A stretch of DNA of 64,000 nucleotides, taken from a virus. The notes under the pieces are model-generated. The model was not told the origin of the DNA. It was given only the letters and a program-made list of their open reading frames with translations, and made no database searches. The stretch spans positions 54,537 to 118,536 of IMG/VR virus record IMGVR_UViG_3300042305_001986; one strand, given 5' to 3'. The translations under genes were made by a program, and so were the position numbers. Shown one piece after another: positions 8,829-22,579 of the stretch. Position 1 is the first letter of the stretch; every line of letters starts with the position of its first letter.

Positions 8829-8849
8829 TATATTTGTAGTGTTCTTTGA
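8829..8849 (+). promoter_or_regulatory. Bacteroidetes-type -7 promoter element plus boxA-like site upstream of tmRNA
   Basis: TATATTTG (8829-8836) then GTTCTTTGA (8841-8849). Confidence 0.65.
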
Positions 8850-8855
8850 TATTAT

Positions 8856-9245
8856 GGGGGCGATTTTGGATTTGACCGGTATGGTCAGGCACAGAGTGCA
8901 CGTAGTGAGATGAGATCTATCACTTTAATCTACGGTTTCAAAAACAACTGGCGAAACTTTCGCAAAACTTCAGTCTATTGGTTTGATCCAAACTGAAGAG
9001 GTTTACGCAGCCTAAGGCTCCGAAAACCTACGGGTCGGTCAGGACATATACCTATGAACAGAAGTCCACTGAAGGTTGGTTACCTTAATAACCAAAGGTT
9101 GTAGTACATCTTAAAGTATTACCACCGTGGCTGAACGGTGTGAGAATTCAGATATTTCGGATTATTGTGAATTAATAATGACCTAAACGTGTAGTACTCT
9201 CTGTTTGAGATACTAGGGACGGCGGTTCGAGTCCGCCCGCCTTCA
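8856..9245 (+). ncRNA. ssrA: tmRNA; tag ORF 8950-9015 GETFAKLQSIGLIQTEEVYAA*
   Basis: 5' GGGGGCG...GGATTTGAC and 3' GAC-GGCGG-TTCGAGT-CCGCC-CGCCTTC-A form an Ala-like acceptor with G3.U70; internal ORF ends YAA-stop. Confidence 0.92.
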
Positions 9246-9268
9246 CTAAATAAACTTAATTTTCAAAA

Positions 9269-16999: not shown

Positions 17000-17009
17000 A
17001 CACCTGAAG

Positions 17010-17039
17010 CCCTCCACCAAAAAGTGGAGGGTTTTTTTT
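17010..17039 (+). terminator. Intrinsic terminator
   Basis: CCCTCCAC-loop-GTGGAGGG followed by T8. Confidence 0.8.
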
Positions 17040-17084
17040 GATTATAAAATTAAAATAAACTATAATTCATTTAAAATTTTAATT

Positions 17085-17579
17085 ATGGAAGCTGTTTTGG
17101 TTTTAAACGCAGATTATACACCCATCAATACAACAACTTTAACGAGGGGATTCGTCTTGGTACATAAAGGAAAGGCTGAAATTTTGAAAGGAGGAGAAAA
17201 ACCCATCGCAACTTCGATCGGAAATTTTATCAGACCGTTGATCATTCGTCTTTTGCATTATGTAAGTTTTAGACCCGTGAAATCACGTATCTCAAGACAC
17301 AAGATATACAAAAGAGATAATCATGAATGTGTTTATTGTGGAACCAAAAATGATCTATCCATCGATCACGTAATTCCAAAATCAAGGGGAGGAGGGAATA
17401 CTTGGGCAAATCTTGTGACTTGTTGCAAGAAATGTAATTCAAGGAAGGGGAATAGAACTCCTGAAGAAGCAAATATGAAATTTGTAAAAAAGGTTGAAGT
17501 ACCCAAAACTTTCTGTGGGATCTTTACAGTTGAAGCAGAAAAAATGTATAATGAGTTTATGACAAGTTTCTCTTATTGA
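17085..17579 (+). CDS. HNH endonuclease family protein (McrA-like)
   Basis: RD...C.YCG...SIDHVIPKSRGG.NTW.NLVTCC.KCN..KG. Confidence 0.88.
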   Translation: MEAVLVLNADYTPINTTTLTRGFVLVHKGKAEILKGGEKPIATSIGNFIRPLIIRLLHYVSFRPVKSRISRHKIYKRDNHECVYCGTKNDLSIDHVIPKSRGGGNTWANLVTCCKKCNSRKGNRTPEEANMKFVKKVEVPKTFCGIFTVEAEKMYNEFMTSFSY

Positions 17580-17623
17580 TTTTTTTAGAATAATTCATAT
17601 ATTTATAATCAGAATTTAAAACA

Positions 17624-17707
17624 ATGCTCAACAAAAAAGGACATATCAAAGGATTTAACGGCTGTGATTGGCAGCAGGAACCACCATGTCCATTTGTTCG
17701 GGTATAA
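17624..17707 (+). CDS. Putative leader peptide MLNKKGHIKGFNGCDWQQEPPCPFVRV
   Basis: 27-codon ORF after TATTTAT (17600-17606) with A-rich start context; its 3' end carries the antiterminator strand. Confidence 0.65.
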   Translation: MLNKKGHIKGFNGCDWQQEPPCPFVRV

Positions 17708-17760
17708 AAAGTATATTTTTAAAAAAAATGTAACCCGAACAACAAAAGTTCGGGTTTTTT
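17694..17760 (+). terminator. Attenuator: intrinsic terminator with alternative antiterminator
   Basis: AACCCGAAC(17732-40)/GTTCGGGTT(17748-56)+T-run; TTGTTCGGGT(17694-703) is the exact complement of ACCCGAACAA(17733-42). Confidence 0.75.
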
Positions 17761-17764
17761 GTTG

Positions 17765-17785
17765 TATATTTGTGTTGTTCTTTGA
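17765..17785 (+). promoter_or_regulatory. Host-sigma -7 element plus boxA-like site for tRNA cluster
   Basis: TATATTTG then GTTCTTTGA. Confidence 0.6.
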
Positions 17786-17803
17786 TATATGAGGAAAAAA
17801 AAA

Positions 17804-17875
17804 GCAATGGTAGCTCAATGGTAGAGTTCCAGTCTTCCAAACTGGATGTTGTGGGTTCGAATCCCATCCATTGCT
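17804..17875 (+). tRNA. tRNA-Gly(TCC)
   Basis: GCAATGG/CCATTGC acceptor; CCAGT-CTTCCAA-ACTGG; GGTTCGAATCC. Confidence 0.92.
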
Positions 17876-17882
17876 CAAAAAT

Positions 17883-17983
17883 AGTCAGGTAGTGGATATG
17901 TAAGCGGGCTCAAGCTCGGTAAGTCGAAAAGGTATGATCCTCTTTACGAGGCCACATTGCAGGTTCGAATCCTGTCCTGACTT
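17883..17983 (+). ncRNA. Non-canonical tRNA-like RNA (acceptor + T arm, no normal D/anticodon arm)
   Basis: AGTCAGG/CCTGACT acceptor; GCAGG-TTCGAAT-CCTGT T arm; central region non-cloverleaf. Confidence 0.7.
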
Positions 17984-17989
17984 CAAAAT

Positions 17990-18065
17990 GCGTCAGTAAC
18001 TCAATTGGTAGAGTGGTTATCTCCAAAGTAACAAGTTGTGGGTTCGAGTCCTACCTGACGTGCCA
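17990..18065 (+). tRNA. tRNA-Trp(CCA), CCA end encoded
   Basis: GCGTCAG/CTGACGT; GTTAT-CTCCAAA-GTAAC. Confidence 0.9.
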
Positions 18066-18069
18066 ATAA

Positions 18070-18140
18070 GGTCGGATGTCCGAGTGGTTAGGTGAATCTC
18101 TGCAAAAGATTTAACACTGGTTCGAATCCAGTTCCGACCT
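18070..18140 (+). tRNA. tRNA-Cys(GCA)
   Basis: GGTCGGA/TCCGACC, U73; AATCT-CTGCAAA-AGATT. Confidence 0.92.
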
Positions 18141-18144
18141 CTAC

Positions 18145-18215
18145 TTCTCCATAGTATAATGGTAAAACAACGGATTTTGGTTCCGTGGTTTTAGGTTCGA
18201 GTCCTGATGGGGAAA
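18145..18215 (+). tRNA. tRNA-Gln(TTG)
   Basis: TTCTCCA/TGGGGAA; ACGGA-TTTTGGT-TCCGT. Confidence 0.88.
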
Positions 18216-18230
18216 CAATGTTATATATTA

Positions 18231-18322
18231 GGTGTGGGCATGACCACAAATAAACAAAGGCGGGTTGGTTTCCCAACTTCGGAGAAATTCGGAGAGTCTG
18301 AGTTCGATTCTCACCCACACTC
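18231..18322 (+). ncRNA. Non-canonical tRNA-like RNA, 8-bp acceptor / 4-bp T stem
   Basis: GGTGTGGG/CCCACACT; TGAG-TTCGATT-CTCA; collapsed anticodon-like hairpin GGTTGG-TTTC-CCAACT; extra arm TTCGGA-GAAA-TTCGGA. Confidence 0.6.
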
Positions 18323-18345
18323 TAATATATAATTAATTATAAAAT

Positions 18346-18417
18346 GGCCCATTCGTCTAAAAGTAAGGACATTTGGTTTTCATCCAAAAAATCTCGGAGC
18401 GTTACCGGGATGGGCTA
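18346..18417 (+). tRNA. tRNA-Glu(TTC), atypical D and T loops
   Basis: GGCCCAT/ATGGGCT; TTTGG-TTTTCAT-CCAAA; T loop AGCGTTA. Confidence 0.82.
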
Positions 18418-18425
18418 CTAATAAA

Positions 18426-18497
18426 GGTCTATTGGTGAAGTGGCTATCATACCTGCCTGTCACGCAGGAGTAGAGGGGTCGGAACCCTCATAGACCG
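18426..18497 (+). tRNA. tRNA-Asp(GTC), atypical T loop
   Basis: GGTCTAT/ATAGACC, G73; CCTGC-CTGTCAC-GCAGG; T loop GTCGGAA. Confidence 0.87.
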
Positions 18498-18595
18498 CAT
18501 TTGTTTTATTAACTCCACCGAAAAACCCACAAATCTTTAGTTTGTGGGATAAAAGGTTTGATTAAACATTTCTTAATTTAGGAATATTTATTTAC

Positions 18596-19867
18596 GTGAG
18601 AGAGCAAATACGCAAAATTCTAAAAGAATTATTTTCAGGTGACGGTTCCGTAACCTTTAGTTTTCGTGATATGAAGGCTTTTAAACCAACATACACTAAT
18701 GCTCCGTGGAGGGTATACTTTAATGGTTTAAAAATAAAAGATGGTCAATATTCACATGGTGAAAATACATATATAGATTTGATTGGAAATGATGTTGAGT
18801 TGAGAGGTATTAATCCTATAGATTTTATGAGTGATGGAAAATCGGGTTACGTTGACCTTTACAAACTTGAAGAAATAAAACCTGATATTCGTGAAATTTT
18901 GTTCGGTAGTAAGGATAGTGGAAAAGTAAAATCAGGTGTCGGTCCTGTAACCTTTAGTTTTCGTGATATGAAAGCTTATAAACCAACATACGGTCCGTGG
19001 AGGGTATACTTTAATAACTTAGAAACCAAAAAAGGCCAATATTCACATGGTAAAAATACATATATAGATTTGATTGGAAATGATGTTGAGTTGAGAGGTA
19101 TTAATCCTACAGATTTTAATTTTACGGAAGATGGAAAATCGGGTTACGTTAAGCTTTACAAACTTGAAGAAATAAAACCTGATATTCGTGAAATTTTGTT
19201 CGGTAGTAGGAATAGTGGAGAAGTAAATTCAACTTTAATTAGGAGTGCGTTAAAAAAGGCGTTTCCAAATAATTGGAAAGAACGAGATGAAATATATAGC
19301 GCAGGTATTAGAGATATAAATACAATAGGTGAAAGAACGGGTAAGGGCGAGTCATGGTCAATTATGAATTATTTTGATACAAAAAAAGAAGTACAAAAAA
19401 AAATATCACAAAAATGGAATAATGAAGGTGAAGGAGATTTAGAGGAATGGTTAGTTGATGTATTTAAAAACGACAACAATTTTATGAAAGAGTTATTGGA
19501 TATCCAATGGAGGTCAATAGAAAATGGTTATAATACTGAGATATATGCCTCAGAAGTAATTTCTAATCATATACCAGGTAATCTTGAGTTGTTCCCTCCT
19601 GGTTCTATAATTGACCGATACGGTTCAATAGACATGATTATTGGGGGTCAGAGTTTTCAAATAAAACCTTTATCTGGTCTCCTCGTAAAAGACGGTAAAT
19701 ATTTTGTTAAAACTTATGGTATGAAGAAGGACTATAAAAGTAAAAAAATTGATTATATTGTTTATGCAAAAATAGGTGGTAAGGTATATGTTTTCCCTAA
19801 TAAAAACTATGAAGTAGGTGGTGGAGGTAGTGAAGTGACACATTTTGAAAAACCTACAATCTATTAA
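18596..19867 (+). CDS. Late protein with internal tandem duplication and possible PD-(D/E)xK-like C-terminus
   Basis: GTG start after TATTTAT; two ~97-aa near-identical repeats; IDRYGSIDMIIGGQSFQIK. Confidence 0.6.
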   Translation: MREQIRKILKELFSGDGSVTFSFRDMKAFKPTYTNAPWRVYFNGLKIKDGQYSHGENTYIDLIGNDVELRGINPIDFMSDGKSGYVDLYKLEEIKPDIREILFGSKDSGKVKSGVGPVTFSFRDMKAYKPTYGPWRVYFNNLETKKGQYSHGKNTYIDLIGNDVELRGINPTDFNFTEDGKSGYVKLYKLEEIKPDIREILFGSRNSGEVNSTLIRSALKKAFPNNWKERDEIYSAGIRDINTIGERTGKGESWSIMNYFDTKKEVQKKISQKWNNEGEGDLEEWLVDVFKNDNNFMKELLDIQWRSIENGYNTEIYASEVISNHIPGNLELFPPGSIIDRYGSIDMIIGGQSFQIKPLSGLLVKDGKYFVKTYGMKKDYKSKKIDYIVYAKIGGKVYVFPNKNYEVGGGGSEVTHFEKPTIY

Positions 19868-20433: not shown

Positions 20434-21087
20434 ATGAAACCATATGTATATAAAATAACGGGTAAAAATAACACCTATTACTATGGTGTAAGATGGAATT
20501 ACTTCGGTAGTCCTGAAGACGACTTATTAGTAAAGTATTTTACATCATCCGATTACATAAAAGAAATTATGAGTAAAAATGGTGTTGATTTCTTTTCAGG
20601 AGAAATAATTAAAATTCTGAACACGAGAGAAGAGGCATTACAATTAGAATATGAATTAATTAAAAAGTCAATAAATGATGACTTATGTCTTAACCGTGCA
20701 ATTGGTAAATGCACTATTTGGGACGAATTTTTATTAAAAAAACTTTCTAACTCGATGCAACATAGGTGGGAGGACCCTAATTATAGATCAAAAATCGTAG
20801 AATCAAAAAAAGGCGAGAAAAATCCAAATTATATGAAACCATCTTGGAGAAATGTAAATAGTGATGTCCAATCATGGATGAAGTCTTTTCAAATATTTGA
20901 CGATTACATCAATGAAAGTTGGGATTTCACTAAATATGGATTCGGAAGACTTATGTTACAAAAAAGATATGATATCTCTCAAGGGACCTCAAGATGTCTT
21001 ATTAAAAAAATAAAAAATGGTTGGTCCCCATATAATGATATTGATTTTATAGATTTTTATAGAGAAAACACGTCCATGGCCGGATGA
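20434..21087 (+). CDS. GIY-YIG (Seg-like) homing endonuclease
   Basis: YVYKI..KNNTYYYGVR...YFTSS...E...LNR; GEKNPNY NUMOD-like motif; TATTTAT upstream. Confidence 0.75.
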   Translation: MKPYVYKITGKNNTYYYGVRWNYFGSPEDDLLVKYFTSSDYIKEIMSKNGVDFFSGEIIKILNTREEALQLEYELIKKSINDDLCLNRAIGKCTIWDEFLLKKLSNSMQHRWEDPNYRSKIVESKKGEKNPNYMKPSWRNVNSDVQSWMKSFQIFDDYINESWDFTKYGFGRLMLQKRYDISQGTSRCLIKKIKNGWSPYNDIDFIDFYRENTSMAG

Positions 21088-22454: not shown

Positions 22455-22505
22455 GAAATATGTAATATCTTTGTGGTGTTCTTTGAAATGTCGGAATAAT
22501 AAAAC

Positions 22506-22579
22506 CCTCCCATAGCTCAATCGGTTAGAGCGTCGGACTCATAATCCGCAGGTTCTTGGTTCAAGTCCAAGTGGGAGGA
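22506..22579 (+). tRNA. tRNA-CAT, probably Ile2 (lysidine); Met possible
   Basis: CCTCCCA/TGGGAGG; loop CTCATAA; adjacent to tilS. Confidence 0.8.

Follow-up and report, generated by a model that had tools for sequence, protein, structure and literature searches.

Several amino-acid operons of enterobacteria are controlled through leader peptides (trpL, hisL, pheL and leuL), and some of these leaders are multivalent, such as thrL (Thr and Ile) and ilvL/ivbL (Ile, Leu and Val). T-box riboswitches, located upstream of aminoacyl-tRNA synthetase or amino-acid genes, sense uncharged tRNA directly, one tRNA each and with no need of translation. Why and when phages make use of the tRNA genes they carry is debated, the proposed reasons being compensation of codon usage, replacement of a degraded host pool and escape from tRNA-cleaving defences. 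Here we describe an element found before a unit of tRNA genes in a 64,000-nucleotide stretch of DNA from a large uncultured phage (hereafter the window), which corresponds to the last 64 kb of the 118.5-kb IMG/VR virus record IMGVR_UViG_3300042305_001986 (estimated to be ~39% complete, 33.6% G+C). The element comprises a promoter, a 27-codon leader open reading frame (ORF), an intrinsic terminator and, at the end of the leader, a stretch complementary to the terminator. Judging from its sequence and from its relatives in other viral contigs, it is likely to be a ribosome-mediated leader-peptide transcription attenuator that senses tRNA supply.

The general mechanism of leader-peptide attenuation is described in the sections of PMC1183508 used here. 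The mechanism class of the element would be classical ribosome-mediated attenuation, the multivalent thr and ilv leaders being the closest systems. Like the attenuators of amino-acid operons, it has a short ORF with regulatory codons and a terminator whose 5' arm can pair instead with an upstream stretch, a stretch that a ribosome at the stop codon would mask, and more than one amino acid would be sensed per leader. Unlike them, it would regulate tRNA genes and not biosynthetic enzymes, its carrier is a phage, and leaders of its kind hold up to 12-13 amino acids, mostly once or twice each and not in runs; in addition, a boxA-like element follows the terminator, there is no conserved hairpin between segments 1 and 2 (see below), and it is related to none of them by sequence or in Rfam. 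With T-boxes it would share the principle that the state of a specific tRNA pool decides between terminator and antiterminator, whereas the element described here has an ORF and neither a specifier nor a T-box motif.

When Rfam was searched with E values up to 10, no leader family was recognized, the best match being Thr_leader with 17.3-18.8 bits against a gathering score of 55. The weak matches obtained (Thr_leader, MicC and others) were rejected, as they lie far below gathering and rest on the terminator hairpin, and a T-box riboswitch was discarded too, with no match at E up to 10 in 17400-18700. A full-text literature search, covering the main texts of openly accessible papers, gave no description of leader-peptide attenuation of phage tRNA genes. 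A leader peptide before the Escherichia coli tRNA-Phe genes pheU and pheV was considered as a precedent and dropped, since it found no support in the sections of PMC7049720 and PMC3082878 used here; in those of PMC7049720 both genes are monocistronic, with leaders of 3-4 nucleotides (nt).

The leader codon block and the downstream tRNA genes

An earlier reading of the window, made from its letters without database searches (the sequence-only reading), had proposed the 27-codon ORF, the terminator, the complementary stretch and the tRNA cluster, and all four are present where it had placed them (Table 1). Exactly six tRNAs are called by ARAGORN within 17804-18498, namely Gly(tcc), Trp(cca), Cys(gca), Gln(ttg), Glu(ttc) and Asp(gtc), and they score 44-72 bits with the Rfam tRNA model. 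The terminator stands between the leader ORF and these genes, 47 nt before tRNA-Gly. Within the leader, the block G-C-D-W-Q-Q-E had been said to use all six of the corresponding amino acids and no others, which the comparison with the ARAGORN set bears out. A 7-residue block of this kind, made of the six amino acids only and covering all of them, has a probability of 1.2-1.6e-5 per 26-residue peptide, computed under proteome or leader-pool composition; to find all six anywhere in the leader has, under the same composition models, a chance of 0.02-0.03. Among the in-set codons of the leader (n = 10), GGA (twice), TGG and GAA are Watson-Crick cognates of the unit tRNAs, and TGT (twice), GAT and CAG (twice) need ordinary wobble. 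The block sits 16-34 nt upstream of segment 2, the 5' strand of the antiterminator, and this is the closest that a stalled ribosome can be without masking that segment. A further match suggested at first, between the CCA (Pro) codons that follow and a tRNA-Pro, did not survive: close relatives have S or L in place of residues P21 and P23, so that the CCA codons lack conservation, and the tRNA-Pro is part of another unit at a distance of 6.3 kb.

Two tRNA-like elements of ~100 nt are found within the cluster (17883-17983 and ~18217-18322), each with an acceptor stem, a T arm and an oversized body. Both are missed by ARAGORN at its defaults and are called only with lowered thresholds and forced introns, and we do not trust the identities "Ala(cgc)" and "Gln(ttg)" given by these forced-intron calls. 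The first one reaches 24.4 bits with the Rfam tRNA model, below the gathering score. The spacing of the two elements is unchanged in close relatives.

A family of leaders that follow the content of their tRNA units

Leaders of this type are not restricted to the window. A pattern derived from three copies of a stem motif retrieved 16 stretches in viral contigs, 12 of them further loci. In all of these, small hairpins and a terminator accompany a promoter and a leader of ~30 codons, and a tRNA cluster is found 35-116 nt downstream. In most of these loci the cluster encodes Phe, Ile, Gln, Lys, Val, Tyr, Cys, His, Arg, Trp, Leu and Asn, and the leader of this Phe unit, MKLVNKQIVKHVIQFCQNWYLRVF..., contains all twelve cluster amino acids and no others through residue 24.

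For a wider survey we scanned both strands of 193 sources (190 viral loci, two loci of a 423-amino-acid protein encoded in the window and the window's own record). The detector required a T run preceded by a hairpin with 9 pairs or more, at most 160 nt upstream of a tRNA, and took the longest ORF that starts with ATG, has 15-60 codons and stops 5-50 nt ahead of this hairpin; amino-acid content played no part in it. A qualifying ORF precedes 54 of the 58 strong terminators upstream of tRNAs, compared to 19% in mononucleotide shuffles; one of the four misses is technical, an in-frame upstream ATG in contig L084 lengthening the ORF to 100 codons. These 54 units reduce to 38 distinct peptides and to 23 groups at 50% peptide identity, and one representative per group entered the statistics, a unit being the same-strand tRNAs up to the first gap >400 nt (or, in a second version, >1000 nt) or the next leader.

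In this survey leaders track the units they precede. With gaps of at most 400 nt, 123 of 126 unit amino acids occur in the leader against 100.1 (standard deviation 4.8) after permutation, and 265 of 707 leader residues belong to the unit set against 189.9 (standard deviation 13.7); with gaps of at most 1000 nt the values are 205 of 215 against 171.6 and 436 of 707 against 326.6, and in none of the four comparisons did any of 20000 permutations do as well. A Cochran-Mantel-Haenszel test by amino acid gives p = 8e-10 (gap <=400 nt) and 9e-18 (gap <=1000 nt), although the 23 groups share ancestry and both the permutation and the Cochran-Mantel-Haenszel p-values are therefore overstated. A control that is independent of shared ancestry was provided by the four contigs that have two units each, where leaders match their own unit in 131/224 residues, with a coverage of 59/60, and the other unit of the same genome in 40/224 and 27/60. 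This control rules out genome-wide codon bias as the cause of the match. The prediction that leader codons would follow tRNA content is thus borne out by permutation, by the Cochran-Mantel-Haenszel test and within single genomes. The share of matched codons, family-wide, is highest 15-30 nt before segment 2 (0.79), the distance class in which the block of the window falls, and lowest inside or after it (0.49).

The second line of evidence comes from covariation. In the 23 groups segment 2 pairs with its own terminator arm at -10.88 kcal/mol and with swapped arms at -7.55, a difference equalled in 0/20000 shuffles, and the pairs have very different sequences (GGAGATGG/CCATCTCC, GGTTCAG/CTGAACC, TTCCGGA/TCCGGAA or ATCTCGG/CCGAGAT). 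The compensatory change between antiterminator and terminator proposed as a check by the sequence-only reading is in this way found across the family. In most groups segment 2 ends no more than ~20 nt upstream of the leader stop.

As separate observations, many otherwise unrelated leaders of the 23 groups begin, by eye, with M-K-x-x-x-x-H-[I/M], which may reflect either common descent of the leader 5' end or a requirement of initiation or early elongation. In contig L081, from a related phage, ARAGORN calls a tRNA with anticodon CTA ("Pyl") beside tRNA-Cys, 229 nt upstream of the Phe-unit leader element; from its sequence, it is possibly an amber-reading tRNA.

Two mutually exclusive folds

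The terminator scan describes the hairpin as 9 pairs, 5 of them G-C, with a 7-nt loop and a T-rich tail; we refer to the 5' arm of this hairpin as segment 3 and to the 3' arm as segment 4. Segment 2, formed by the last leader codons, TTGTTCGGGT, is complementary over all of its 10 nt to ACCCGAACAA (17733-17742), the duplex having -16.0 kcal/mol, and the leader stop codon begins 1 nt past it. The complete 166-nt region folds at -40.4 kcal/mol, compared to -26.2 +/- 4.0 for shuffled sequences (z = -3.58; 0/200 as good). Terminator and antiterminator states, at -40.1 and -37.7 kcal/mol, are nearly isoenergetic and mutually exclusive. The terminator forms in the minimum free energy (MFE) fold of the complete region, and the antiterminator is the MFE fold until segment 4 is transcribed. 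The MFE fold also contains a pairing of segment 2 with the start-codon region (segment 1), whose isolated duplex has -9.9 kcal/mol.

The effect of a ribosome was modelled by placing a 30-nt footprint according to the codon in the A site and folding the rest thermodynamically. With A-site codons 2-12 and 18-19 the full antiterminator is obtained (10/10 pairs), codon 20 gives 8/10, and from codon 21-22 through the stop the terminator forms. Folding of both states, as had been suggested, hence places the switch from antiterminator to terminator, in this footprint model, directly after the G-C-D-W-Q-Q-E block.

Table 1. Coordinates of the leader module, its tRNA unit and the adjacent upstream gene, numbered from the first letter of the window.
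Feature	Position	Strand	Description
HNH endonuclease gene	17085-17579		Pfam HNH_5, E = 1.8e-18
Promoter P1 of the leader	17576-17605	+	-33 element TTGATT (17576-17581), 16-nt spacer, -7 box TATATTTA (17598-17605)
Leader ORF, 27 codons + stop	17624-17707	+	ATG 17624, TAA 17705-17707; peptide MLNKKGHIKGFNGCDWQQEPPCPFVRV
Segment 1, start-codon region	17624-17635	+	Pairs with segment 2 in the predicted untranslated state
Regulatory codon block	17660-17680	+	GGC TGT GAT TGG CAG CAG GAA (G C D W Q Q E); from sequence against the ARAGORN tRNA set
Segment 2, antiterminator 5' strand	17694-17703	+	TTGTTCGGGT; last leader codons
A+U hairpin inside the antiterminator helix	17712-17732	+	Present in both predicted states
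Intrinsic terminator	17732-17760	+	AACCCGAAC (17732-17740), loop AACAAAA, GTTCGGGTT (17748-17756), TTTT
Second promoter-like -7 box, P2	17765-17772	+	TATATTTG; after the terminator
boxA-like motif	17777-17794	+	GTTCTTTGATATATGAGG; two window sites, this one and 8841-8858 before the tmRNA gene
tRNA unit, putatively regulated, eight elements	17804-18498	+	Gly(tcc), tRNA-like, Trp(cca), Cys(gca), Gln(ttg), tRNA-like, Glu(ttc), Asp(gtc)

Transcripts of the region were sought in contigs of the freshwater metatranscriptome runs X1, X2, X3 and X5, where uncovered stretches are uninformative; five RNA runs match 4-7% of sampled words. One 164-nt contig of run X3 covers 17632-17793, that is, the leader, across the terminator and into the boxA-like motif, and a contig of run X1 spans 17400-17639. 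Both contigs would fit readthrough, and also transcripts that enter the leader from upstream.

Promoter and close relatives

The P1 elements (TTGATT-16-TATATT in the promoter scan) correspond to a Bacteroidota-type promoter that, by its sequence, belongs to the leader module. In an alignment of four sequences the TTGA and the -7 box are unchanged and the flanks divergent, and most of the leaders of the 23 groups are likewise preceded by a -7-type box TAnnTTT[G/A], usually with a TTGAnn -33 element before it. The TATTTAT at 17600, which had been taken as a late motif, is part of this -7 box and shows no sign of late timing.

The same module is held at 95% identity by three viral contigs, and an exact tRNA-Gly pattern search gave these three close relatives only. 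The leader ORF, whose conservation had been named as a check, is open and of the same length in 4/4 close relatives, and its substitutions amount to two synonymous ones, K5T, P21 to S or L and P23 to S, with no change in the G-C-D-W-Q-Q-E block or in any of the stems. The peptide has no match to a Pfam family and resembles, by eye, the leaders of related phages through a C-[DQN]-x-W motif.

In one of these relatives (L004/L076) the module is separated from the HNH gene by a 1.2-kb insertion of opposite-strand genes. The -7 box is the exact point at which homology begins again, and the non-homologous DNA upstream still provides TTGAAT-N16-TATATTTA. The module has thus been kept with the tRNA unit despite the insertion, which argues that it belongs to that unit and has its own promoter. 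The inserted stretch in L004 (4560-5700) contains opposite-strand ORFs rich in a GTTGAGGTTGAG-type repeat, and the insertion brings its own bidirectional terminator beside the HNH stop.

Elements between the terminator and the first tRNA gene

The sequence-only reading had cautioned that a promoter element (17765) lies past the terminator. This caveat stands, as the P2 box and the boxA-like motif recur before the gene of the phage transfer-messenger RNA (tmRNA), the 26-nt stretch 17763-17788 that includes the P2 box being repeated at 92% identity just upstream of that gene. Within the family, a TAnnTTTG box between the terminator and the first tRNA is found in 9 of the 23 groups and missing from the other 14. 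Since such a box lies past the terminator in the window, the attenuator there is probably a partial gate, P2 giving a basal level to which the attenuator would add a regulated share.

A close variant of the boxA-like motif is located at ~22478-22494, before the tRNA-Met gene at 22506. The related 19-mer GTTCTTTGAYRTRTTGGTA has matches in more than 111 viral contigs, where it generally precedes the first tRNA of a unit by 26-31 nt, and many of these viral sites have unrelated terminator stems and unrelated leaders. It also has 123 sites in bacterial contigs, mainly of Bacteroidota, of which 47 lie at most 500 nt upstream of the start of a 23S ribosomal RNA (rRNA) gene, 14 are in cut loci and 62 are other or unresolved; proximity was judged by BLAST with the 5' part of the 23S gene of contig L195, in which the motif is found 130 nt before that gene. 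The motif core, TTCTTTGA, is similar to the boxA consensus that the section of PMC13753749 used here gives for E. coli and Bacillus subtilis. Because of this resemblance and of the sites upstream of 23S rRNA, the motif at 17777-17794 is probably a Nus-factor antitermination signal of the boxA type borrowed by phages, which would bind NusB/S10. Being located past the decision point, it would render termination-resistant only those polymerases that had come through the gate. With Nus antitermination at the boxA of rrn operons, as given in the sections of PMC13753749 and PMC4807359 used here, it has in common the GTTCTTTGA(Y)AT that follows the attenuator and the Bacteroidota sites upstream of 23S rRNA; here, in contrast, it would be a companion element and not the sensor, and it sits in phage tRNA and tmRNA leaders.

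A different setting of the 19-mer is seen in viral contigs such as L090, L098 and L311, in which it follows a conserved, G+C-rich structured stretch with no tRNA after it.

Proposed mechanism and points that weigh against it

In the mechanism that we favour, RNA polymerase would start at P1 and transcribe the leader, and a ribosome would translate it while the polymerase proceeds. After a smooth run to the stop codon the ribosome would cover segment 2, the terminator would form and the transcript would end before the tRNAs. Were charged Gly, Cys, Asp, Trp, Gln or Glu tRNA scarce, the ribosome would linger on the G-C-D-W-Q-Q-E block and leave segment 2 free; this would pair with the terminator 5' arm, no terminator would form and the polymerase would read on, acquire the boxA-like signal and transcribe the six tRNA genes. 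The supply of the very tRNAs that the unit encodes would in this way be under negative feedback.

A number of observations count against this interpretation. Three of its steps, namely translation of the leader, stalling within it and regulated readthrough, are inferences from sequence. In the thermodynamic model the terminator still forms when the A site is occupied by codons 13-17 (G, C, D, W, Q), with segment 1 pairing again with segment 2 behind the ribosome; when segment 1 is blocked (a run made for codons 15-17 only) a partial antiterminator of 6/10 pairs results at these codons. The pairing of segments 1 and 2 is itself not conserved family-wide (own -7.71, swapped -7.37, with 4372/20000 shuffles as good), so that for most members readthrough is the expected default of a leader that is not being translated. 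In the window, only 10 of the 26 leader residues belong to the six-amino-acid set, the residues K, N, H, I, F, L, P, V and R have no tRNA in the unit, and the GGC codon is not readable by tRNA-Gly(UCC) under standard wobble rules. In the family, besides the shared ancestry of the groups, the codon test by isoacceptor class (Leu, Arg, Ser and Ile boxes) is suggestive only, with odds ratios of 2.9 (p = 0.11, gap <=400 nt) and 4.5 (p = 0.007, gap <=1000 nt). The four close relatives, being 95% identical, have stems without any substitution. As to the RNA data, the contigs, that of X3 among them, could be contaminating DNA, and they show no ends, strand or level. Lastly, the P2 box recurs before the tmRNA gene, and most transcription of the tRNAs may accordingly begin at P2 and bypass the gate.

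Alternative explanations

An extension of the attenuator reading takes it one step further. The phage tRNA blocks, each gated by its own "checklist" leader, would together form a surveillance of tRNA supply whose triggers include host anticodon nucleases or tRNA-targeting defences, and the element would be a counter-defence sensor and not just a homeostat. We put this forward tentatively and think it, on the whole, improbable.

One could also imagine a real attenuator that reads general translation capacity, or works by nascent-peptide arrest, and not by the supply of specific tRNAs. In the general-capacity version the terminator would form only with plentiful, fast ribosomes, and all units would open at once upon any global slowdown, for instance through host shut-off, starvation or toxins that target the ribosome. 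Many leader residues do fall outside the unit set, most members would default to readthrough when untranslated given that segment 1 is not conserved, and both the M-K-x-x-x-x-H-[IM] start and the C-x-x-W-[YF]-x-R of the Phe-unit clade (by eye) could act through the peptide. Nevertheless, such a sensor needs no unit-matched composition, and leaders of the same genome match their own unit (131/224 vs 40/224 residues; 59/60 vs 27/60 in coverage); the conserved C, W, Y and R are, moreover, themselves amino acids of the tRNAs in those units. We regard this explanation, in either version, as unlikely.

A simpler proposal is that of an ordinary gene boundary, at which the hairpin would end transcripts from the HNH gene or from P1, the tRNAs would be made from the 17765 box, the ORF would be idle or encode a micro-protein and the amino-acid match would be coincidental. 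The terminator scan gave no terminator between the HNH stop (17579) and the leader ORF, so that upstream transcripts would reach the hairpin, with which the RNA-library contig 17400-17639 is compatible; P2 resembles the promoter of the tmRNA, and just 10/26 residues match. What makes this proposal very unlikely in our opinion is the chance of the block (1.2-1.6e-5), the persistence of the module with the tRNA unit once separated from the HNH gene, which has a separate terminator there, and the existence of 23 groups in which leaders track their units and segment 2 covaries with the terminator, 14 of the 23 being without a post-terminator box.

Attenuator-derived products that act in trans have a precedent in rnTrpL/peTrpL of Sinorhizobium (sections of PMC6614838 and PMC7298713 used here). 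A trans-acting role of the 140-nt terminated transcript, as a structured small RNA or a small-protein mRNA, could coexist with attenuation and fits the strong fold (z = -3.58), the presence of an own promoter and terminator and the substitutions of the relatives, which are unpaired or keep a G-U pair (by eye; 6 variable sites only), but as the explanation of the element it has hardly any probability, as there is no Rfam family match and it accounts neither for the tRNA-matched composition nor for the fixed place directly upstream of tRNA units.

If attenuation by tRNA supply is indeed what the element does, the phage would measure decoding speed codon by codon and make tRNAs on demand, and the debate on phage tRNA genes would become testable, in the form of which shortage opens which unit. 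Leader-peptide attenuation would then take in genes of the translation machinery besides metabolic operons, a single leader would sense a dozen amino acids instead of one to three, and the carriers would include Bacteroidota-type phages, for which there is little documentation of such control. Another possible use of the leaders is as natural, modular reporters for the supply of individual tRNAs.

Genomic context

In the window, 17 tRNA genes accompany the tmRNA gene, and the + strand encodes them all. When its region 17000-18600 was compared by blastn with annotated phage records, short tRNA-level matches covering at most 5% of the query were obtained and no annotated relative. The tmRNA (8856-9246) has an unusually long tag, GETFAKLQSIGLIQTEEVYAA, and akin tags are present in the related contigs L007, L011, L064 and L067. 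The HNH gene (Table 1) has relatives of 51-61% identity in ~60 viral contigs, in many cases close to tRNA clusters, a conservation unusually high for a presumed homing nuclease.

Downstream of the unit, the 423-amino-acid protein (18596-19867) is composed of two tandem copies of a ~100-amino-acid repeat (SVTFSFRDMKA.KPTY...YKLEEIKPDIREILFGS); it has no Pfam match, and the search for related loci with it gave two loci only. Further on, a 217-amino-acid ORF (20434-21087), which ends within the start of tRNA-Leu(taa) at 21078, has a weak match to NUMOD3 (E = 0.006, below the cut-off) and is probably, on sequence grounds, a homing-endonuclease-type gene among the scattered tRNAs.

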